Shown: one piece after another, positions 16,583 through 37,827 of the stretch
Position numbering within the stretch: the first letter of the stretch is position 1
How the letters are laid out: every line of letters starts with the position of its first letter
DNA from: Kofleriaceae bacterium
Lineage (GTDB): Bacteria > Myxococcota_A > Polyangia > Haliangiales > Haliangiaceae
Direction: 5' to 3'
Assembly: GCA_965215005.1 (NCBI GenBank)
Contig: CBDCCZ010000023.1
Coordinates: forward strand, 1-64,000
DNA: 64,000 bases
Notes under the pieces: model-generated
Databases searched by the model: none
Told to the model about the DNA's origin: nothing
Seen by the model: only the letters and a program-made list of their open reading frames with translations
Translations under genes and position numbers: made by a program

Positions 16583-18676
16583 CTAGGGCGAGGAATCGAG
16601 CGGCTCGGTGTCGTGAAATCTCGTGTAGTCGATGAGCATGCGGCCATCGGGCAGCTCGCTGATCACGTCCACGAAGCGGGCGTCGACGCGCAGATCGTCA
16701 GGCCCATAGATGTGCCGGGAATAGACAGTCTGGCCGTAGGTGCCATCGTGTCCGAGCATGGTCACGATGATGGCGGCGATGCTGCGGCTCGGCTGCTGCC
16801 AGTCGATTCCATTGAGCGGGCTGGCTTCATCGATCTCGTGCATCACGGTCCAGCTCAGCGTGAACAGCGGTGAGCGATCGCGCACCAAGCGCAAGTCGCG
16901 CATGCGCCGCAGGTGCTCGCCTTCAGGAGTAAGCTCATCGCGCAACACCGTCACCGTGAGCGCCGCTTCGACCACGTCGTTGCCGCGCGCGTTGCCGACG
17001 CGAAATGACAGCACCGGCTTGGCGTTGCGCTGGGTCACCACGGCGACATTGCTAAACAACATGCTGGCTTGCGGGCGCGAGGCCTTGGCGAACATCAGCC
17101 CGGTCGCGAGTGCCACCAGAAGCATGCCGGTGGCCGCTTCGAGCGTGACGATGCCGTGACCGTAGTCGGTGACCGGATGCATGGCACCAAAGCCGATGGT
17201 CGAGAGCGTCTGCACGCTAAAGAAGAACGCATCGCCAAACGAGTCGCTGGCGACATTGGCAACGCATCCCGGTCGCAAGCTATAGAGCGCCGCGAAGAAC
17301 ACGTTGACCATCAGATAGGTGAAGCTCAGCGCCGCCAGCAGGCGTTTCCAGCTGCCTTCCATGAAGTAGAAATAGACGTCGCGGCGCAAGGCCGCAGGAG
17401 CGCCTTTACGCAGCGCTTCACCGATGCGTGGCCGCTGATGCCGCACCTCCTGCCCGCTCGCCGCCCGTCGTGCCAGCTCTGCCGTGGTCACGCCGTGCTC
17501 CTCCGCGTGCTCCGGCCCCGACTCGAGCGGCGCCATCATCATGTCGAGCACCACTTGCGCGACGCACACCGCTGCTACCAAGGCCAGAAACATTCCCGCG
17601 CTCATGCCCGCCCCCGCCGGAGCGAGCAGCAGCATGAGCAGTGCCGAGGCCAACCGCACGTTGACGCGTAAGCGATCACTGAGCTCTGCGTGCCGCCGCT
17701 CGGTGACCGAGTCGACGATGGCGACCGCCAAGAACGTAAGCGCGAGCGAGCCCGCGAGGAGCCAGCGGTAGGCGGCTGGCGCCAGCTCCATGAGCTCGAA
17801 ATGGACCGCTTTCTTGATCCCAACGCCGACCGCGGTGGCGCCGAGCTGCAGCGGCAGATGGCCGTAAAGCCACACCACTGGGGCGAAGCGCTCGCGGCGC
17901 ACCCGCGAGCCCGCCACGTCGTCGAAGTAGATCCACCACAAGCAGCACGTGATGAGGAGCGTCATCGACGCCTGCAAGATGAGCATGGGCCCGGTCGAGC
18001 TCGATAAGCTCGAGAGCACCTTCACGAACGACTCGCCGAGCACGATGAGCGTGAGGAGCCCGTAGCGCTCGCTCAGATGCTCCTGGTCGATGGGCTGGGC
18101 CTGGTTCAGCTCTCGCGACTGCTTGCTCAGAGGCGCAAACAGCACCAGCAGAACCGCCACTGCACCGCCGATAGGCCAATACGGCGGCGGCACCCACGCG
18201 GTTGCCGCCGCCACCAGCGCGCTGGCCAAGAACACCCGTCCCCAATACGCGCTGTAATCGCGGCTGGCCGGAACCTGCCGCCAGGTGCGGTAGTAGAGAG
18301 CGGCTACCACGACTTGAGCGACAGCAAAACTGCTCAAGAACAGCATCGGCGCGCCAGCGAGCGCCGCGGGGGCCGTGACGGCCATCGCTCCCACCGCAAA
18401 CATCTGCAAGAACACCAGTAGGCGGTGAGTGAAGTCGTCGACGATGAAGCGATTTTCGAAGAACGTAAACCCAGTCCAAGTGATCCACAGCGGCGCAAAG
18501 ATGCCTGCGAAGGCCAGAAATCCAGCTGGATTGATTTGATCGCTCAAGCCGTTGCCGAGCTGGATGAACGAGGCCACGAAGATGAGGTCGTAGAAGAGCT
18601 CGAGCCACGTAACCTTCTTCTCCACCCCGTCTCGCGGCACGTGCAAGATGGGAACGTGAAACCATCGGCTGCGCAT
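16583..18676 (-). CDS. Fusion of low-temperature-requirement protein A (LtrA) and a KirBac-type inward-rectifier K+ channel
   Basis: N-half VTWLELFYDLIFV...HLSERYGLLTLIVLGE (LtrA); C-half FFFSVQTLSTIGFG filter, FRVGNARGN and SWTVMHEIDEASPL (Kir cytoplasmic domain); one open frame. Confidence 0.88.
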   Translation of the reverse strand: MRSRWFHVPILHVPRDGVEKKVTWLELFYDLIFVASFIQLGNGLSDQINPAGFLAFAGIFAPLWITWTGFTFFENRFIVDDFTHRLLVFLQMFAVGAMAVTAPAALAGAPMLFLSSFAVAQVVVAALYYRTWRQVPASRDYSAYWGRVFLASALVAAATAWVPPPYWPIGGAVAVLLVLFAPLSKQSRELNQAQPIDQEHLSERYGLLTLIVLGESFVKVLSSLSSSTGPMLILQASMTLLITCCLWWIYFDDVAGSRVRRERFAPVVWLYGHLPLQLGATAVGVGIKKAVHFELMELAPAAYRWLLAGSLALTFLAVAIVDSVTERRHAELSDRLRVNVRLASALLMLLLAPAGAGMSAGMFLALVAAVCVAQVVLDMMMAPLESGPEHAEEHGVTTAELARRAASGQEVRHQRPRIGEALRKGAPAALRRDVYFYFMEGSWKRLLAALSFTYLMVNVFFAALYSLRPGCVANVASDSFGDAFFFSVQTLSTIGFGAMHPVTDYGHGIVTLEAATGMLLVALATGLMFAKASRPQASMLFSNVAVVTQRNAKPVLSFRVGNARGNDVVEAALTVTVLRDELTPEGEHLRRMRDLRLVRDRSPLFTLSWTVMHEIDEASPLNGIDWQQPSRSIAAIIVTMLGHDGTYGQTVYSRHIYGPDDLRVDARFVDVISELPDGRMLIDYTRFHDTEPLDSSP

Positions 18677-18849
18677 GCCGCCAGCATCCACGTGTTGGAA
18701 TTGGCGGTCGACCCATCGGGCGGGCAAAGCGCCGCGGCCTGCCCAAATGCACAGGCCCGGCCGCAACGGAGATGCATAGCGAGCGAGGCGCCGAGACTCC
18801 AGCATGGCCGCGCTGCTCGACGCTTGCCGTGGCTCCCTCGCCGATTGCT

Positions 18850-29863: not shown

Positions 29864-31603
29864 CTACCCTTGGAGGAAGACTTGATAGATAGCAGCACCG
29901 ACCCCCACCAAGGCCTCGCCGACCAAGAGGCCTGCGGCCATGGGAATGCCCACCTCTTCGCTCCAGGTCTTGCCGAGCTTCCAGTCGCTGAGCATCCGAA
30001 GCAGGGTGCCGATGGTGTAGGTGAGGACGATGTTGAACGGCAGATAGAAGCCGAGACCGACCAAGATGCCGAGGCCGCCGACACCCGAGGCGCTCAAGAT
30101 GGCGCCGAGCATCGCACCTGCGGCGTAACGCTCGACCGGCACGTCGGCGCCCAAGATGCCACCGATCATGCTGGCAAGCGCCTGCCCTTGCGGCGCCGGC
30201 AGTCGCGCCGAACCGAGGCCGTGTTGTTTGTGCAAAAGAACGATGAGCGACATGACAACGATGGGGCCGAGCCAGGCGCCAGTTAGCTGCGCGATCTGTT
30301 GCCGACGCGGCAGCGCCCCTACCAGGTAGCCAGTTTTCAAGTCGAGCATGAGGTCGGTGGCCTGCGACATCGCCACGCACATCGCAGCCCCCACCATCAC
30401 CGAGGAAATGATGGCCTCGGAGTCGCCGAGGCCACTTGCGACGAAGATCAGGATCGTGACCCCGATCAGCGTCATCCCCGACAGCGGCGACCAGTTGGTG
30501 CGACCGATGCATTCGGACAAGATCACGCCAGCGACCCAGATCCACAGCGTGCCGAGCAGCGCCATCACCAGACCACGGCCAAGCCCCATGTGCTCGGTCG
30601 ACAGAAACGACATTCCCAGGAGCACGACGAAGGCGCCGACCACGCCGTAGGTCAGCAGCTTGATCGGCATCTCATCGCGTGAGAGCTGAGAGCCCTGCTT
30701 GGAAGCTGCGCGCATGCTGCCGATGGCGCTGCGAATGACCGGCAACGCCAGGACGATGCCGGCGAGCGCGCCGCCGATGAGCATGCCGATGCCGAGCGGA
30801 CGAAACAGCGTGAGCCGCAGCCATTCGGCGACGCCGCCGACGTCAGCCGTGATATCGGGCCCGGGGATGTGGCCGGTGGTGGCGAGAATCGGCGCGAGCA
30901 CCCAATAGCAGACGTAGCCGCCGATGATAAAGAACACGCCGCCGCGGCCGGCCAGAAATCCGACCCCGACCGTGAGCAGCGAGACGTACCAGATACCGTT
31001 GGCGTAGTCGGGCCAGCCCAGCATCGCGCCGATGGCGAGGTCGTGGTAGCCGCCGAGTTGATAGATGAACAGATGAACGAGGCCGCTCACGGCAGCGCCG
31101 CCCAAGAGCAACATCGACTTGCGCATGCCCGCTCCGGGGGACTTGAGAATCGCGGCCACCGCAATGCCACCCGGGTATGGCAGGCGCTCGAAGTCGATCA
31201 TCTGCTTGCGTAGCGGGATGATGAACGCGATGCCCATGATGCCGCCGACGATGGCGCCGAGCACCAAGAGCGGATAGCTGAAGTCGGTGTGGCCGAGGAT
31301 GAATAGCGCGGGCACCGAGAACATCAGCCCCGACGAGGCACCATTGACCGCGCTAGCGACGGTTTGATTGATGTTGTTCTCGATGATGCTGTGGCGGCCG
31401 AGCAGGCCGCGCAAGATCGCAAAGCCGAGAATAGCCGCCAGCTCCGAGCCCTCGATGCTGAATCCGAGGATCAGCGAGGCGTAGCCAATGGCGAGTGAGA
31501 TGACGATTCCGAGCCCCCACCCGACGAGGACAGCGGTGATCGTAAGCTCCGGATACGGCCCGCGTCGCAGGGGGCCGTGTGGGCTAGAGGATGGTGACGC
31601 CAT
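29864..31603 (-). CDS. OPT/YSL family oligopeptide transporter
   Basis: PELT, ENNINQT.ASA, LPYPGGIAVA, DLKTGYLVGA.PRRQQIAQ, PAPQ motifs. Confidence 0.95.
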   Translation of the reverse strand: MASPSSSPHGPLRRGPYPELTITAVLVGWGLGIVISLAIGYASLILGFSIEGSELAAILGFAILRGLLGRHSIIENNINQTVASAVNGASSGLMFSVPALFILGHTDFSYPLLVLGAIVGGIMGIAFIIPLRKQMIDFERLPYPGGIAVAAILKSPGAGMRKSMLLLGGAAVSGLVHLFIYQLGGYHDLAIGAMLGWPDYANGIWYVSLLTVGVGFLAGRGGVFFIIGGYVCYWVLAPILATTGHIPGPDITADVGGVAEWLRLTLFRPLGIGMLIGGALAGIVLALPVIRSAIGSMRAASKQGSQLSRDEMPIKLLTYGVVGAFVVLLGMSFLSTEHMGLGRGLVMALLGTLWIWVAGVILSECIGRTNWSPLSGMTLIGVTILIFVASGLGDSEAIISSVMVGAAMCVAMSQATDLMLDLKTGYLVGALPRRQQIAQLTGAWLGPIVVMSLIVLLHKQHGLGSARLPAPQGQALASMIGGILGADVPVERYAAGAMLGAILSASGVGGLGILVGLGFYLPFNIVLTYTIGTLLRMLSDWKLGKTWSEEVGIPMAAGLLVGEALVGVGAAIYQVFLQG

Positions 31604-31697: not shown

Positions 31698-32609
31698 CTA
31701 CGGTGCGAGGCGCTGGGCGAAGAACTGCCACGCTGCTGCGACGCCGAAATCGGGCCAGACGTGGCCGCCCTCATGCTCGCAGTAGTGCACCGGATGCGCC
31801 GGCTGGCAGCCGCGATAGCTCACGCAAGGCGACGGGTCGGTGGGCTCGGTGGCTTCGTCGCAGCCGGCGCGGTTGCGATGGTCATCACGAAACGCGCTAC
31901 GGCCAGGATTCTGTTCCTCGGCGCCAATGGTGACCCACGCCGCCGGCGTGCCGACGCAGCTTGCTGGGTCGTAATACATGACCGCGCCGCCGGCGGCGAT
32001 GGCGGCGATGTCGCTGCGCCGACATCCCAAGACGCCCGAGAACGAGCCGCCACCACTAAACCCCATGGCGAAGATCGCCGTCTCGTCGATGCACAGCGCC
32101 GATCGCACCTGTGTGAGCACCTCATCGAAGTAACGAAGCTCGCTATCGACTGCCGCCGGCCAGGTCTCTGCGGGAGCGTCATAGTCGCGCCAGTTGCCGC
32201 CAATCGCCTCGGCGATGACCAAGATTGCGTTCTCCGCGAGCATGCCGCGCAGGTTGCGCTGCCCGGCGGTGGCATCCCAATAGGTGGCGCTGCCGCCGTT
32301 GGGGTGGAGCGCCAACACCAGCGGCCACGCGCGCTCGCTGTTGTAGTTGCTGGGCAGGCGCACGATGAATCGCCGCTCCCGGCCCTCGAGCTCGAAGGCG
32401 TGCTCGCCCTCCGCTAGCCCCGGCTCGTTGCCGCATCCCGCGCTCATCACGCGACCGGCATCGGCGGCTCCGGAGTCGGGGGTTGCCGGCTCAACGGCGG
32501 CATCGACGGCGGCGTCCGGCGCACCGACAGAGCCTGCGTCGCCAGCGGCGTTGGTCTCACCGCATGCCACAACCAGTACCAACACACTCGCAAGCCGCAG
32601 TCGGTTCAT
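31698..32609 (-). CDS. Alpha/beta-hydrolase lipoprotein (PHB depolymerase/feruloyl esterase-like)
   Basis: Lipobox VVAC; PLVLALHP, GFSGGG nucleophile elbow, GGHVWP. Confidence 0.85.
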   Translation of the reverse strand: MNRLRLASVLVLVVACGETNAAGDAGSVGAPDAAVDAAVEPATPDSGAADAGRVMSAGCGNEPGLAEGEHAFELEGRERRFIVRLPSNYNSERAWPLVLALHPNGGSATYWDATAGQRNLRGMLAENAILVIAEAIGGNWRDYDAPAETWPAAVDSELRYFDEVLTQVRSALCIDETAIFAMGFSGGGSFSGVLGCRRSDIAAIAAGGAVMYYDPASCVGTPAAWVTIGAEEQNPGRSAFRDDHRNRAGCDEATEPTDPSPCVSYRGCQPAHPVHYCEHEGGHVWPDFGVAAAWQFFAQRLAP

Positions 32610-32966
32610 TGCTACCAAGCTAGCAGCTCTGAAGTGGCAAGTAGACTCTCGCTACGTGCGTGGCTCAAAAGGCTCACCAATTTCGGGTGATGCGTTTGCC
32701 CTGGTGACCCGGGACCCCCATGAGGGGGTACTATACTCCCAGGTAAGGTGAGCCACGATACGCGTGTGCAGATCGCACATTCGCTTGGCAGTTGCGTCCT
32801 TGCGCCGACGCCGCGACCAACTCCCGGAAACTACTTGCCTGCGGCACGACTTTGCCGTTGCCCCCGCCGGCTGATTGAGGAATTCTGCAGTCAAGCAGCA
32901 GGTGCCAACTACCAACGCTCACCGCTGCCCTTTCAACCGCCAACGTACTGAAAAGGACACAGACTC

Positions 32967-33089
32967 ATGAAAAAGACCGCCACCAGCCAGAAGGCCCAGA
33001 CCACCGACAAGAAGTCCAAGAGCCTCCTTACCCTCACCCCAGCTGATATGAAGGGGATCGTAGGCGGCAAAGGCGAGATCATCTGGTAA
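32967..33089 (+). CDS. Small double-glycine-leader peptide (40 aa; not in the ORF track)
   Basis: AAAAGGA RBS; MKKTATSQKAQTTDKKSKSLLTLTPADMKGIVGG-KGEIIW*; GC-ending codon bias; hairpin directly downstream. Confidence 0.75.
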   Translation: MKKTATSQKAQTTDKKSKSLLTLTPADMKGIVGGKGEIIW

Positions 33090-33101
33090 GTCCTCTAACT
33101 G

Positions 33102-33131
33102 GAGTCGCAGTCTGTTTGCGAGCTGCGACTC
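33102..33131 (+). terminator. Hairpin downstream of the peptide gene
   Basis: 9-bp stem GAGTCGCAG...CTGCGACTC between convergent genes; no strong U-tract. Confidence 0.5.
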
Positions 33132-33225
33132 TCGCTTAGGCACTGCCGCTCGCGGCGTGCTCGATGGTTCACGGGACGCCGTGCGCCATCGAGTGTCCTA
33201 AGCGCGAGAATCTCAATCGAGAATC

Positions 33226-36200
33226 TCAATAAGGTATGAGTCGATAGGCCTGGACCGATCGCACCCATGGGTGGTCGGCCAGGCCTTCTCGATATTCGCT
33301 CGGCACTGCCGCAATCCACGCTGCGGCTTCTTCTTGCGCAACCGCCAAGCTCGCGCGCGAGCTCGTTTGCTGGCCGAGCTTGTGAAACAGACGCGAGCGG
33401 ATGTCTTCGATTCGGCAACGGCTGCTGCCATCGCTCGCGCCCGGGCTCAGCTGCAAGAACTTCACGATGAGCCAGTCGGGGGCGCTATCGGAGTGCACCG
33501 CGAAGCCATTGGCGAGGTCCAGGAGCGCGTCGGTGTAGCCGGGACGTGTCCAGCGATCGGGCTCGGAGAGGAGCTCCACCGCCGACTCGAGCCGCCCAGC
33601 GATGACATCGGCGAGCACCTGCGCTTGGTCGAGAAAGCGCGGCACGCCCATCGGCCGAAGGTCGTGACAGGCCTGATCGGCGATGGCAGAAGCCTCTTCT
33701 GGCTGCCCCGTGCTCCACCGCACCCGCGCGAGCGCCAAGGTCGCCAAGAGCCGGCGATCTGGATCCGCCTCGCGATGGCGAAAGTACTCGAGCCAGGCCG
33801 CCGCCTCGGCGTAGTGCCCCATCTTCATTTGAATGAGCGCATGGCTGAGCGTGACGCCCTCGCCGACCTCGACGGCACGCTCGAGCGCGGAAAACGCCTC
33901 TTGATAGGCACCCGAGGCCCACTTCGACTCTGCCACCAGGCCGCGATACAGCGCTTCCTTCTGGGCCGCGTTGACGCGCGCGCACAGCTCGGCAGCGGCG
34001 GTGAGAAGCCGCTGCGCGGCCTCCTCATTGCCTTCGCTGCGCTCCAGGTCCGCCAGCGCCTCCTGACAGAGCGTCACGGTAACCCAGTCGGTGCGCGCGC
34101 GATCGAGGACCTCGTCGAGAAGCGGCCGGGCGCTGGCAAAGTCGCCGAGCACGTGAAAGAACGTGCCGACATTGAGGGTTGCGGCCACCAGCCGCGAGTG
34201 ATGACCAACGCGCTGATAGATCTCCCGCGCTTCGAGAGTTTTCTCGATGGCTTCGGCGATCTTCCAGCGGCGAAACAGCGACATTCCGATGTTCATCAGG
34301 CAGTTAGCGCGAAGCAGCTCATCGGCGGTCCGTTCCGCGGTCGCTAGAGCATCGGCATAGAGCGCTTCGGCTTGCTCGAGGTGGTTCTGCATGAGAAACA
34401 CATTCGCCAGCCGCCACACGCTCCAGCCCACCCCCGCGCTGTCGCGGCTGAGCGTGATGGCGCGCAGCGCATACTCCAGCGCCTTCTTGCGCGCGCCCAC
34501 CGTCTCAAACTCGAGATAAATTCCCGCCAGCGCGGTGCACGCTTGCGCCTCGAGATCTTCGGCACTCACCTCGCGAGCCAGTTTTCTGGCCCGTTGAGCG
34601 AGTGCGCGCGCCGCATCGAGCGCCGCTTCAGCCTCGGTTCGCCGCCGCAGCGCCGCCGCCTCCAAGAGAATCTCGACGCCGAGGCGACTGCGCAGCCCGT
34701 CGGCTCCGAGCTCCTCCTGCGCACGTGTGAGATCATCGAGAGCCAGGTTGCGCTCGCCGATCGGCTCCCGCGAGCGCGCGAGCAGAAGTCGCGAGCGGGC
34801 AGCGTCAATTGGATGCAGCGAGGCAAACAGGGCCGCGGCGCGCTCGAGAAAGACCACCGCGGTTCCGTACGCATGCGCTTTGGCAGCGGTCTCGCCGGCG
34901 CGACGGTAGTACAGCGCCGCCTTGCCGAGCGCCGCGAGCAAGTCGTCATCGGGACGCGTGGTGCTGAGCGCATCTTGCGCGGCGCGCTCAAACCAGCTCA
35001 CCGCTTGTTCGGCCGCGCCGCCGCCGGCAAAGTGCTCGGCGAGCACCACCGCATCGGTCTCTCCTTGCTCTTGCAGCCAGGCGCCAGCGAGGCGGTGCCC
35101 GGTGGCGCGGTCGCTGTCGGTGAGCATGCCGTAGGCGGCCTCGCGGGTGAGGTCATGGCGAAAGCTGAGCTCGAGCTCGGCGCCGTAACTGCTGCCCAGA
35201 GCACGGGTGGCGATGAGCTCTTCGCGATCGAGCGTGCGCAGCCAGCCCTCGATCTCTCCGCGCGCCAGATCATTGCCCACCAGCGCGGCCACGCCGCCGA
35301 GCCAGAACGAGCGCCCGAAGATGCTCGCAGCGCGCAAGATATGACGCGCCGGCTCGGGCAACCGCGCGATGCGCAGCTGCACGCTGGCCATCACGCTCTC
35401 GGGCAGCGCTTCGAGCTCGCCACCGGCCGCGGCGCGAATGAGCTCCTCGAGGTAGAACGGATTGCCGGCGCTGCGCTCGACCAGGCGACTTCGGGTTCGC
35501 GCGTCGATCCGATCGCCGAGCATCTCGCGCACCAGCTCATCGCTAGCGCCCGGCCGCAGCGGCTCGACGAGGATTTCTTGCCGCTCCCAGTCGCTTGCCA
35601 GGGTCGGGAAGCGCTCGCGAGCCTCAGGTCGTGCCAGCGCCACCACCAGCAGCGGCAAATCAGCGGCGCAGCGCAGCCCCGCGCTGATGAGCTCGACCGA
35701 GGCGGCATCGGCCCACTGCAGATCGTCGACGACCAGCAGCACCGGCCCCGCGGCGCATTGCGCGACGAGCCAGTCCTGCCACGCCCGCCGCTTCTGATCG
35801 GCCATGAGCGCCGCGTCACCGCGGGCGGCGCGCAGCGCGATGCTTTCAGCGGCGGGAAGCTCGATGCCCATCAGCTCGCCGAGAAACTCCGCCACTCGCT
35901 GGTCTTCGGGCGCGGCAATCGAGCGCGAGATGCGCGCGGTCAACGCCGCAGGAGACGTTCCCGCGCCTTCGGCAAGCCCCAGATGGCTGCGCAGCGCTCG
36001 GGCCATCATGCCGTAGGGAACCTGCGCGCGCAGTGCATCGCCCCAGGCAGCAAAAACGGTGAGCGTGGGTTGATCTTGGCGCAGTCGGCGAAGCAGCTCG
36101 GCGTGCACCCGCGACTTGCCGACGCCGGCTTCGCCAAGCAAGACGATCGCGTGCGCGGTGGCGTCATCGATAGTGCCAGCCGCGGCCGCTTCGAGCTGTC

Positions 36201-37827
36201 GCAACAACCGCCCGCGACCCACGCAGGGCGTCGCGCGCCCGAGCAGGGGCCGCGGTGGCTCCTCGGCATCGGGTTGGCGGGCACGCTCGGCGAGTAGTGT
36301 GAAAGGGCCACCGGTTGTCTGCGAGAAGGCGAACTGCATCGGCAGCAGATCGCGCGTGGCGCGATCCATGGCGATGCGGCGGGCGCCCGCTTCCACCAGC
36401 CCGGCGGCGCGATCGATGATGCGACCCACGGCGTCGCGTTCGCTGAGAACGGCGCGATTGGTCGCGACTCCCAGCGAGGCATCGGGAAGCACGCGCGCAA
36501 TCGCCAGCGCGCAGCGCGCCGACCGCGCAGCGAGATCCGTGGCGGCGGCACCGCCCGAGAGCATTGCGACGAACGAGCCATTGAGTAGCACCTCGATGCG
36601 CGCACCGAACGGCTCGAGTGCCTCGCGAAGCGCCGGCAACAGACGCGCGGCTTGCGACGGGCCGCGCACCACCTGCAGCGCGCCCTCCGTGCTGCCGTCG
36701 TCTGCAGGCGCGCGGAGCTCGGCCTGCGTAGTCGCGCCGGTGACACTCACTCGTATCGGCTCCATCGCCAGGGTCTGCGCCAACTCATCTTCGGGGCTCG
36801 GCGCCATCGCGGCGAAGATGATCGACACTGGCTGGAGCTCGCGCGTGGTCAGCGACGGGAACGCCATCACCTCCGAGGTACCGATGGCGCCCCCATGAAA
36901 CATCGCGCGCACGGTGCGTATCGCCTCCGCAGCGCGCGAGCCGTCGCGCGGCCGTCGCGCGGGATCATACGCCATCATCCGCGCCACCAGCTCGTCGACC
37001 GCGCGCGGGATCTCGGGCACCAACGCGCTCACCCGCGGCGGCTCTTCGAACATGGCGATCTTGGCGAGCACCGCCTCGATGCGCTCGCCGCGGAACGCTG
37101 GACGTCCGGTGAGACACTTGAAGAGAATCGAGCCGAGCGCGAAAACATCGGCCGCGGGACCGACCGCGCGATCGCAGCGCGCCTGCTCTGGCGACATGTA
37201 TTCCGGTGTTCCCATCCCCACGCCGGTTGCCGTCACCGGATCCCAGCCGCCGCGGCGCACGATGCCAAAGTCGAGCAGCTTGGGTCGACGCAAATCGCTA
37301 CCGACCAGCAGGACGTTCGAAGGCTTGACGTCGCGGTGAACCATGCCGCGGTCATGAGCGGCACCCAGCCCTTCGGCGATGCGCGCGACGACCGCAAGCG
37401 CTTCATCGACGCTGAGCGGGGTCCTGCGCATGCGCTGCGACAAGGTGATGCCCTCGAGCCATTCCATCGCGATGAAGGCGCGGCCGCCTTCGGTTTCATG
37501 AGCGACATGCCGCACCACGGCTGGATGATTGATCTCGATGAGCGCCCGCGCCTCCATCGCCATCCGCTTGACGAGCGCGGCGTCATCGAACAGCAGCAGC
37601 TTGAGGGCAACGACGCGACCCGTGCGGCGATCGTGGGCGCGATATACGTCGCCCATGCCGCCTCGGGCGACGAAGCGATCGATCTCGAACCGTTCCGCGA
37701 TGAGCTCTCCAGCTTTCCACGTCGAGCCGCGATTCCCCACTCCGGAATAGTACTGCGCAACTACGCAGGAGACACGTTCTAAGGCGGTCGTAGCCGCAGG
37801 CGTCCCGCTCTGGCGCGGCTGTCGCAC
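33226..37827 (-). CDS. Ser/Thr kinase - degenerate cyclase-like - AAA ATPase - TPR multidomain protein
   Basis: HRDVKPSN/DFG/YMSPEQ; Walker A GEAGVGKS, Walker B LLVVDDLQWAD, SAGNPFYLEEL; ~550 aa helical TPR-like C-terminus; start may be GTG 37740. Confidence 0.92.
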   Translation of the reverse strand: MRQPRQSGTPAATTALERVSCVVAQYYSGVGNRGSTWKAGELIAERFEIDRFVARGGMGDVYRAHDRRTGRVVALKLLLFDDAALVKRMAMEARALIEINHPAVVRHVAHETEGGRAFIAMEWLEGITLSQRMRRTPLSVDEALAVVARIAEGLGAAHDRGMVHRDVKPSNVLLVGSDLRRPKLLDFGIVRRGGWDPVTATGVGMGTPEYMSPEQARCDRAVGPAADVFALGSILFKCLTGRPAFRGERIEAVLAKIAMFEEPPRVSALVPEIPRAVDELVARMMAYDPARRPRDGSRAAEAIRTVRAMFHGGAIGTSEVMAFPSLTTRELQPVSIIFAAMAPSPEDELAQTLAMEPIRVSVTGATTQAELRAPADDGSTEGALQVVRGPSQAARLLPALREALEPFGARIEVLLNGSFVAMLSGGAAATDLAARSARCALAIARVLPDASLGVATNRAVLSERDAVGRIIDRAAGLVEAGARRIAMDRATRDLLPMQFAFSQTTGGPFTLLAERARQPDAEEPPRPLLGRATPCVGRGRLLRQLEAAAAGTIDDATAHAIVLLGEAGVGKSRVHAELLRRLRQDQPTLTVFAAWGDALRAQVPYGMMARALRSHLGLAEGAGTSPAALTARISRSIAAPEDQRVAEFLGELMGIELPAAESIALRAARGDAALMADQKRRAWQDWLVAQCAAGPVLLVVDDLQWADAASVELISAGLRCAADLPLLVVALARPEARERFPTLASDWERQEILVEPLRPGASDELVREMLGDRIDARTRSRLVERSAGNPFYLEELIRAAAGGELEALPESVMASVQLRIARLPEPARHILRAASIFGRSFWLGGVAALVGNDLARGEIEGWLRTLDREELIATRALGSSYGAELELSFRHDLTREAAYGMLTDSDRATGHRLAGAWLQEQGETDAVVLAEHFAGGGAAEQAVSWFERAAQDALSTTRPDDDLLAALGKAALYYRRAGETAAKAHAYGTAVVFLERAAALFASLHPIDAARSRLLLARSREPIGERNLALDDLTRAQEELGADGLRSRLGVEILLEAAALRRRTEAEAALDAARALAQRARKLAREVSAEDLEAQACTALAGIYLEFETVGARKKALEYALRAITLSRDSAGVGWSVWRLANVFLMQNHLEQAEALYADALATAERTADELLRANCLMNIGMSLFRRWKIAEAIEKTLEAREIYQRVGHHSRLVAATLNVGTFFHVLGDFASARPLLDEVLDRARTDWVTVTLCQEALADLERSEGNEEAAQRLLTAAAELCARVNAAQKEALYRGLVAESKWASGAYQEAFSALERAVEVGEGVTLSHALIQMKMGHYAEAAAWLEYFRHREADPDRRLLATLALARVRWSTGQPEEASAIADQACHDLRPMGVPRFLDQAQVLADVIAGRLESAVELLSEPDRWTRPGYTDALLDLANGFAVHSDSAPDWLIVKFLQLSPGASDGSSRCRIEDIRSRLFHKLGQQTSSRASLAVAQEEAAAWIAAVPSEYREGLADHPWVRSVQAYRLIPY

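Follow-up and report, generated by a model that had tools for sequence, protein, structure and literature searches.

A small double-glycine peptide gene paired with a kinase–STAND NTPase–TPR gene in Kofleriaceae-like myxobacteria: a candidate peptide-sensing module

In a stretch of 64,000 nucleotides from a Kofleriaceae bacterium (contig CBDCCZ010000023.1, positions 1 to 64,000; hereafter the window), a gene for a 40-residue peptide with a double-glycine (GG) motif (32967..33089, plus strand, 40 aa and stop; product MKKTATSQKAQTTDKKSKSLLTLTPADMKGIVGGKGEIIW) converges on the 3' end of a gene for a large Ser/Thr kinase (33226..37827, minus strand). The longest open reading frame (ORF) of the latter, 1533 aa, joins a Hanks-type kinase domain to a STAND-type NTPase and a C-terminal superhelix of tetratricopeptide repeats (TPR). 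The 40-aa product may well be the cognate ligand that the C-terminal TPR sensor of this adjacent, probably cytoplasmic protein recognises, the two genes forming a signalling module; we give this reading, which leans on a structural model, an even chance of being right. The pairing had been suspected in an earlier note on the same DNA, which took the peptide for a pheromone-like partner of the TPR end of the kinase.

Relatives of the peptide were not reached from its own sequence. A single-sequence search returned only the query from a collection of 5.8 billion clustered proteins, in which the exact 40-aa product from the same contig is present (P0001), and a search of its own genome likewise returned only itself. 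Matches in 60 relatives were all due to chance (E>=0.57) and fell within open frames of 83-2806 aa. A regular expression for the GG motif passed 11 of 71,941 small ORFs in the genome, and the window ORF is the only peptide-like one among them; no family of paralogues exists in this genome. The way to the family led through the kinase orthologues: the small convergent ORFs of five relatives gave a peptide profile, which was then taken to the protein collection. The part of the kinase that defines the orthologue group is its C-terminal TPR superhelix (residues 950-1533; 33229..34980, minus strand; TPR_12/TPR_MalT matches). This part finds full-length orthologues at ~40% identity in G014, G020, G008, G027, G023 and G044, the remaining matches in relatives being generic TPR, partial, and at E>=6.9e-9. 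An exhaustive search of 1.84 billion representatives with the same part gave 18 at E<=1e-30, followed by orthologue-group fragments and multi-stretch generic TPR proteins, while a word-indexed search with the TPR region found the query itself and one relative (P0038) only.

The profile of five peptides finds 35 small proteins in the collection (48-84 aa, the window's own being 40 aa), each called 'hypothetical protein' wherever the source gives a name; one record comes from a metagenome-assembled genome labelled 'Kofleriaceae bacterium'. Collection members and copies read from loci make up 40 distinct peptides, with the consensus MKKxxAxxxxxxKxxKxLFGLSxxxLKAVxGGGGVIxNxPxxxxxxxx, invariant G33, G34 and G36 (window numbering) and, as an example from a relative, the peptide MKKHTAQVVSQPTKPARTLFGLSSNELQAVFGGGGVIINKPKSSSSPTG (P0002). 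The motif [LI]FG[LVIM] is present in 38/40 and GGGGVI in 37/40. The tails that follow GGVI(I/V)N are Pro/Ser/Gly-rich and hypervariable. The window peptide is the most divergent and shortest member of this family of ~50-aa peptides, and its conserved segment, residues 19-40, reads SLLTLTPADMKGIVGGKGEIIW. The family is nameless in Pfam and NCBIfam: five of its peptides match no Pfam family (E<=10; for the window peptide, E<=0.01), and the best NCBIfam match, TIGR03898, reaches 12.4 bits against a cut-off of 23.5 (E = 0.12).

The gene pair itself is conserved. In all five genomes with an assembled 3' flank (G014, G008, G027, G020 and G023) a small ORF converges on the kinase stop, as in the window. 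A degenerate DNA pattern for the conserved columns, verified on known loci before metagenome contigs were scanned, drew out seven such contigs, and the peptide is present in six of them; the seventh (L070) was discarded as a chance pattern match inside a 1276-aa ORF, and one of the others (L075) has peptide and flanks identical to those of G023. At each of the ten loci with enough flanking sequence (the window, L062-L066, L069, L071, L072 and L074; L073, with 149 nt of flank, was left out), a homologous small GG-ORF runs convergently towards the 3' end of a Pkinase-AAA_16-TPR gene orthologous to that of the window, and by tblastn with the window kinase the facing frame aligns to residue 1532/1533 in every case. 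Stop-to-stop gaps between the two genes are 0, 1, 1, 1, 9, 32, 61, 86 and 136 nt. No other neighbour is shared by the six genome loci, and even two members of the same genus do not have the same flanking genes. Among the genes around the pair are extensin-like, VWA, GMC oxidoreductase, methyltransferase, SseB-like, Asp/Asn hydroxylase and response-regulator ones and, in the window, an OPT transporter, an esterase-like and a glucose/sorbosone dehydrogenase gene. Across the taxonomic family a confident peptide match (E<=3.5e-12) is found in 6 of 138 genomes, the six being identical with those that carry the TPR orthologue; two further weak matches lie inside frames of 438 and 208 aa. In an even sample of the class the peptide occurs in 3 of 401 genomes. 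As far as comparison of sequences can tell, the peptide gene and the kinase gene are a conserved two-gene module in Kofleriaceae-like myxobacteria, and the pairing proposed in the earlier note is borne out; the outcome that the note had named as refuting it, homologous peptides without linkage to this kinase family, did not occur.

Two loci depart from the usual surroundings. In L064 (G027:C254, 1240-7731, plus strand) the peptide gene lies between two receptors, the usual convergent kinase downstream and, upstream on the same strand, a paralogue of 2163 aa with two kinase domains and AAA_16, whose TPR part is 38% identical to that of the window. In L066 (G023:C309, 5164-6462, plus strand) an Asp/Asn beta-hydroxylase with N-terminal TPRs is encoded ~630 bp upstream of the peptide gene. 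This neighbour is seen only there and in L075, apparently the same organism, and the peptide core has a near-conserved Asn.

The peptide is conserved at the level of the protein, since differences at the three codon positions (367/266/553 over 21 gap-free codons of 11 loci) show an excess at the third, and the codons of the invariant Gly, Leu and Val residues show synonymous variation. The window ORF is real and looks coding by its third-position GC content and its codon usage. GC at first, second and third positions is 0.43/0.45/0.825 in a genome of 65% GC. Its codon-usage score of 0.42 per codon is matched by only 0.97% of 16,028 genome ORFs of 35-50 aa and exceeds the median (0.35) of 800 true-coding windows of 40 codons. 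It might still be supposed that the family is real and that the window's short, divergent copy is a chance or decaying, non-functional ORF, given its length, the lack of both LFG and GGGGVI, and a core in which 12-15 of 21 codons differ from every relative. We think this highly improbable: the frame is intact and begins with the conserved MKK, the hydrophobic and GG.G.I pattern is kept, and the partner kinase is both intact and equally divergent, with a TPR part 39-41% identical to the others as against 47-73% among themselves. It was, moreover, the window copy itself that was used in the co-folding described below.

The kinase half of the pair conforms to the reading first given of it, as a 1533-aa kinase/NTPase/TPR gene. 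Its Pkinase domain (residues 49-294; 36946..37683, minus strand) has VALK, HRDVKPSN, DFG and SPE intact. The AAA_16 NTPase (residues 535-729; 35641..36225, minus strand; E 6.7e-20), with Walker A GEAGVGKS and Walker B LLVVDDLQW, stands between this effector domain and the C-terminal repeat domain, which is the layout of the STAND class. Kinase and NTPase motifs are intact in 6/6 full or near-full orthologues, VALK being uncheckable in a 5'-truncated copy. The true start of the protein is uncertain because the gene caller's product is shorter (1476 aa; P0037) and the orthologues align only from residue 35-40. With no membrane segment evident in its sequence, the kinase is most probably cytoplasmic, and the idea of a membrane 'receptor kinase' was given up.

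Modelling of the TPR part gives an all-helical superhelix of high confidence (predicted local distance difference test, pLDDT, 93.1; predicted template modelling score, pTM, 0.91). Its Foldseek matches listed are generic TPR superhelices, including LGN/Pins and TSK, which were solved with bound peptides; no RRNPP receptor and no MalT is among the matches listed. When the TPR part was co-folded with the window peptide (from a 19-row TPR and a 35-row peptide alignment), the interface score ipSAE was 0.84, 0.85 and 0.84, against 0.17, 0.00 and 0.00 for three controls. The calibration mark is reached by 116 of 157 solved complexes and by 2 of 215 mismatched pairs, and is approximate here, since custom alignments were used. 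The runs share at least 92% of contacts, with a partner pLDDT of at least 66. The modelled interface takes in peptide residues 19-26 and 28-40, that is, the whole conserved segment on either side of the Gly-Gly, and leaves residues 1-18 outside. On the other side, 54 TPR residues touch the peptide, recurring about every 37 residues over positions 149-406 of the modelled fragment, plus 562-563; the repeats with these inner-groove residues correspond to kinase residues 1098-1355 (33763..34536, minus strand). Contacts of least error join TPR 375-377 and 343-344 to G30 and I31, 266-273 and 304 to K35-E37, and 229-233 to I38 and I39. Of the eight TPR columns that are invariant (T377, S379, H380, G388, D406, R409, R419 and D488, in fragment numbering), three are contacts, namely T377, H380 and D406. 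The contact asparagines N193, N230 and N270 are conserved in 11/11, 11/12 and 12/12 of the other sequences. Such ladders of asparagines are typical of repeat proteins in which a peptide backbone is bound, and the co-fold as a whole supports, at the level of a model, binding of the peptide in the TPR groove. The hexapeptide KGEIIW, which the earlier note had put forward as the ligand, does not stand as a conserved one: it is what the window copy, in its divergence, has in place of GGVI(I/V)N, and the contact segment that is both conserved and modelled comprises residues 19-40, the supposed leader included.

In the mechanism that we propose, the conserved 22-residue segment would lie extended in the inner groove that about seven TPR repeats form, its 'leader' half on an invariant T-L-S-H patch and its G-x-G-x-I-I half on the ladder of conserved asparagines. 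In STAND proteins such as MalT and its relatives, a ligand at the repeat sensor controls NTP-dependent oligomerisation. By analogy with them, a filled groove would turn the kinase on or off, with ligand-driven, NTP-dependent oligomerisation bringing the kinase domains together or keeping them apart. As the peptide gene seems to have its own promoter, the amount of peptide would carry the signal. That the peptide binds, the sign of its effect (activation or inhibition) and any export are matters of inference; what the data show is that the two genes are conserved as a pair and co-occur, that the peptide is under selection at protein level, and that the co-fold stands above its controls. We somewhat favour an unprocessed peptide that acts directly within the cell that makes it over export and re-import. 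In the model the 'leader' half is gripped no less firmly than the 'core', and TPR binding alone would therefore explain the pattern of conservation.

Several observations weigh against this reading. The conserved segment of the peptide also fits the consensus of GG leaders, as an exported precursor would, and binding in the cytoplasm does not need that fit. Direct binding leaves unexplained the Pro/Ser/Gly tails, the C-terminal Gly of 22/40 peptides (for which none of the readings proposed here accounts) and a second GGVI(I/V) unit in 5/40. The convergent, near-abutting arrangement could instead reflect antisense or transcriptional interplay, the stops in five loci lying 0-9 nt apart, which implies 3' ends that overlap with the kinase mRNA. 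One genome (G044) has the kinase orthologue with no peptide detected in the genome, although there the contig ends inside the kinase gene. The co-fold score is the model's own confidence and no measurement. In its favour, with a reservation, TPR and peptide identities co-vary over seven pairs (Mantel r = 0.78, p ~0.002), the window peptide being 25-33% identical to others that share 31-79%. At contact position 266 the window TPR has Ala where 10 of 12 others have Glu, opposite the unusual Glu37 of the window peptide (elsewhere Val or Ile). Both results point to co-divergence of peptide and TPR, and the co-variation for which the earlier note had suggested looking is there; however, since the window is an outlier in both genes, shared descent alone could explain the correlation and the 266/37 pair, and the co-variation is not decisive.

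The likeness to a GG leader raises a second explanation, in which the peptide would be an exported pheromone. A C39 exporter encoded elsewhere in the genome would cut after the first Gly-Gly, and the C-terminal product (KGEIIW in the window; GGVI(I/V)N and the tail in relatives) would be re-imported and bind the cytoplasmic TPR, much as in RRNPP systems. GG leaders have hydrophobic residues at -15, -12, -7 and -4, an acidic residue at -8 and Gly-Gly at -2/-1. The window peptide agrees at each of these positions (L-15, L-12, D-8, M-7, I-4, G-2, G-1), as does the family (LFGLSxxxLKAVxGG; L-15, L-12, D/E-8, L/M-7, V/I-4, G-2, G-1). By language-model features, the nearest Atlas clusters include those of lantibiotic type-A (first, 0.90) and ComC (rank 16, 0.87) precursors, which serve as leads only, and the second GGVI(I/V) unit would be at home in a multi-copy pheromone precursor. 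A search of the genome for C39-ABC (ATP-binding cassette) exporters, another check that had been suggested, found four C39 matches, on contigs C18, C4, C61 and C6. Contig C18 has a complete exporter with two HlyD genes as partners, C4 has another exporter, and C39 matches above the cut-off occur in all five other carrier genomes. In the window an OPT-family oligopeptide transporter gene (29864-31603, minus strand) lies two genes upstream of the peptide gene, which is suggestive for peptide uptake.

We nevertheless regard the exported pheromone as improbable. No exporter was found among the scanned neighbours in any of the six genome loci, neither a C39 exporter nor an importer is conserved beside the pair, and the other five loci have no OPT gene. 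There is no C39 match on the 143-kb contig (C23) that carries the window, in keeping with the earlier note, which had seen no C39 transporter or modifying enzyme nearby. As C39 proteins are common, their presence elsewhere in a genome says little. Neither Pfam nor NCBIfam has a leader or precursor profile that the peptide matches. The modelled groove grips the leader half as well as the core, with the lowest error at G30 and I31, and does so across the supposed cleavage site; the hexapeptide that cleavage would release in the window is not conserved; and the kinase is, by its sequence, cytoplasmic. Should the pheromone reading hold, for which we see a limited chance, the pair would be an independently evolved Gram-negative pheromone circuit, in which a GG precursor, in some cases with two GGVI(I/V)N units, is cut and exported by a C39 ABC exporter encoded elsewhere, and its product re-imported and read out by a STAND Ser/Thr kinase, with co-divergence of TPR and peptide yielding lineage 'pherotypes'. 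Such a circuit would correspond, in myxobacteria, to the quorum sensing of RRNPP systems, its output being phosphorylation.

Two of the exporter loci have features of their own. The C18 exporter (C18:233000-252000; L017, 5434-15798) is a complete C39-ABC protein of 781 aa, nearest to NHLM_micro_ABC1 and flanked by two HlyD genes, with the motifs Q..DCGAAC and H..HFVV intact. It stands back-to-back with another Pkinase-AAA-TPR gene (1234 aa), beside an FHA-sigma54 activator, and the locus may be a second link of GG-peptide export with the kinase-AAA-TPR architecture. The C4 locus (C4:20000-39000; L018, 3732-12075) is of class I lanthipeptide type, with a LanB dehydratase of 1075 aa and two HlyD genes, its C39-ABC exporter being split into overlapping ORFs of 474 and 343 aa by a frameshift or an assembly error. 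No precursor gene is evident among the small ORFs beside either exporter.

The same leader-like appearance, with the LanB dehydratase and exporter on C4, could suggest an orphan precursor of a bacteriocin or of a ribosomally synthesised and post-translationally modified peptide (RiPP), modified in trans, with the kinase a mere regulator or bystander. There is also a precedent, for according to PMC2887384 (Figure 2 legend) large Ser/Thr kinases accompany leader-bearing NHLP-Burk (nitrile hydratase leader peptide) precursors of thiazole/oxazole-modified microcins (TOMMs) in Burkholderia, and TIGR03903, the corresponding kinase/cyclase family, is the best NCBIfam match of our kinase (E 4.5e-68). 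That match, however, scores 230.2 bits where the cut-off is 705.75. The six loci have no conserved modifying enzyme beside them, and among the 24 window ORFs scanned, of 40 candidates, there is no RiPP enzyme or exporter. Cys, Ser and Thr are conserved nowhere after the GG, and KGEIIW has none of these residues at all. Strict pairing with one kinase orthologue group, together with the co-fold, favours a direct relation between the two products. The orphan-precursor alternative, which had been raised alongside the ligand idea, gains nothing from these results and strikes us as very unlikely.

A further possibility is that the TPR groove docks the peptide as a substrate of the kinase, to be phosphorylated on its Thr/Ser-rich N-terminal third, or else as a labile inhibitor that would restrain the kinase for as long as it is made, the antitoxin-like guard of a stress or anti-phage module. 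Residues 1-18 are indeed Thr/Ser/Lys-rich and lie free of the modelled interface, and the kinase domain resembles, at domain level, those of the defence kinases PD-T4-6 (PADLOC, E 1.5e-74) and Mad6 (E 2.1e-55). The difference in flanking genes between two genomes of one genus would suit a movable module, as would the TPR part of G020, which is 73% identical to that of G014, from another genus, and 53-54% identical to those of its own. On the other hand, the N-terminal third holds no invariant Ser or Thr. The PADLOC matches are confined to the kinase domain (~40-310, up to ~410 in some models), the STAND-TPR part and the peptide matching no defence model, and the scanned flanks of the loci show no defence genes next to the pair. 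Convergent orientation is, in addition, atypical of toxin-antitoxin pairs. We consider such a role unlikely.

Among known systems, the module works most like an RRNPP pair, by analogy at least. In the RRNPP pairs of Firmicutes and their phages (Rap/Phr, NprR/NprX, PlcR/PapR, PrgX, Rgg/SHP and AimR/AimP), a peptide gene likewise stands beside the gene of a cytoplasmic TPR protein, an adjacency found here at all ten testable loci. Conserved asparagines line the groove, in which the peptide is here proposed to lie. The differences are nonetheless considerable: the output is a Hanks-type Ser/Thr kinase acting via a STAND NTPase rather than a helix-turn-helix (HTH) regulator or phosphatase, the host belongs to the Myxococcota, the two genes converge, a Sec-type hydrophobic signal is missing from the peptide, and the modelled ligand is 22 residues long where RRNPP ligands have 5-10. 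The protein's domains are Pkinase, AAA_16 and TPR, with no HTH or phosphatase output, no RRNPP receptor is among the Foldseek matches listed, and on receptor homology, output domain and taxon the pair would fall outside that family. With the STAND NTPases (MalT, AfsR, PknK-type kinases and AAA_16-TPR proteins) it shares the order of N-terminal effector, P-loop NTPase and TPR/MalT-like sensor, and we know of no dedicated, genetically coupled peptide ligand for this class of repeat sensors, nor did the literature searched yield one.

Other likenesses are more partial. LGN/Pins TPR structures (3sf4, 4wne and 3ro2; E ~1e-7, among the Foldseek matches listed) are complexes with partners such as NuMA, Inscuteable and Frmpd. 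In LGN/Pins the partner threads the inner channel as a long extended chain, which is also how the present peptide is modelled; the analogy is one of binding mode only, as these are eukaryotic scaffolds of 15-17% identity with no kinase or NTPase. GG-leader peptides (ComC, class II bacteriocins and class II lanthipeptides) have their hydrophobic, acidic and Gly-Gly positions in common with the present family, in which, by contrast, the sequence just after the GG is the most conserved part and no transporter is linked. The TIGR03903 TOMM kinase/cyclase resembles our protein in being a large Ser/Thr kinase with an AAA region beside precursor-peptide genes (PMC2887384, Figure 2 legend), whereas here the score is far below the cut-off, no TOMM or maturation genes are among the scanned window ORFs and the peptide is unrelated to NHLP.

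The earlier note knew of no such pairing in myxobacteria, and we found no description of it in the literature searched, which did not extend to subscription-only papers; the literal motifs GGGGVII, GGGGVIV, GGVIIN and GGVIVN occur in no paper there. What would be new is the joining of peptide-TPR sensing to a STAND Ser/Thr kinase in Myxococcota. STAND kinases with the kinase-NTPase-TPR layout are abundant in myxobacteria and actinobacteria, and to our knowledge the activating signals of bacterial STAND kinases are almost all unknown. In the present case the genome itself seems to name the ligand, a coupled peptide of ~50 residues with a confidently modelled docking site. If the peptide also leaves the cell, it would be a rare instance of cell-to-cell signalling by a ribosomal peptide in a Gram-negative phylum known for social behaviour.

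The immediate surroundings of the window pair agree with a separately expressed peptide gene. An intergenic region of 348 bp (32619..32966; GC 0.59), described earlier as ~350 bp, is shared by the peptide gene and a divergent esterase-like gene upstream (31698-32618, minus strand). It contains AAGGA at 32953-32957, 9 nt 5' of the peptide ATG; the ribosome-binding site reported before is therefore present, though as a Shine-Dalgarno sequence it is fair and not strong. A simple sigma-70 scan of the 348 bp gave no consensus promoter. By eye, most loci have -35-like (TTGAC or TTGNNN) and -10-like (TANNNT) hexamers ending 6-7 nt before the ATG and no Shine-Dalgarno sequence (L062, L066, L069 and L071-L074), which suggests leaderless peptide transcripts, and AGGA- or GAGG-type sites are seen instead in the window, G008, G027 and G020. 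Under either type of start the peptide gene is, judging from these signals, its own transcription unit.

Downstream, the hairpin that had been reported between the two convergent genes was recovered at 33101..33132 (core stem 33101-33111/33122-33132). It is GC-rich, with a minimum free energy of -27.5 kcal/mol (z = -2.57; 2 of 200 shuffles fold equally well), and is a possible two-way terminator; it has no T-run, which is why the scan used for promoters does not list it. The spacer also gives a sub-threshold Rfam match to gyrA RNA (33116-33211, plus strand; 21.3 bits against a gathering threshold of 45, E = 0.019), which is probably due to chance. An exact 13-nt tandem duplication (CGAGAATCTCAAT, two copies; 33205-33230) overlaps the kinase stop codon and apparently leaves the C-terminus unaltered. 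Further away in the window, a 740-aa ORF (16583-18805, minus strand) encodes an unusual fusion of an LtrA-like membrane domain, a potassium-channel pore and an inward-rectifier C-terminal domain.

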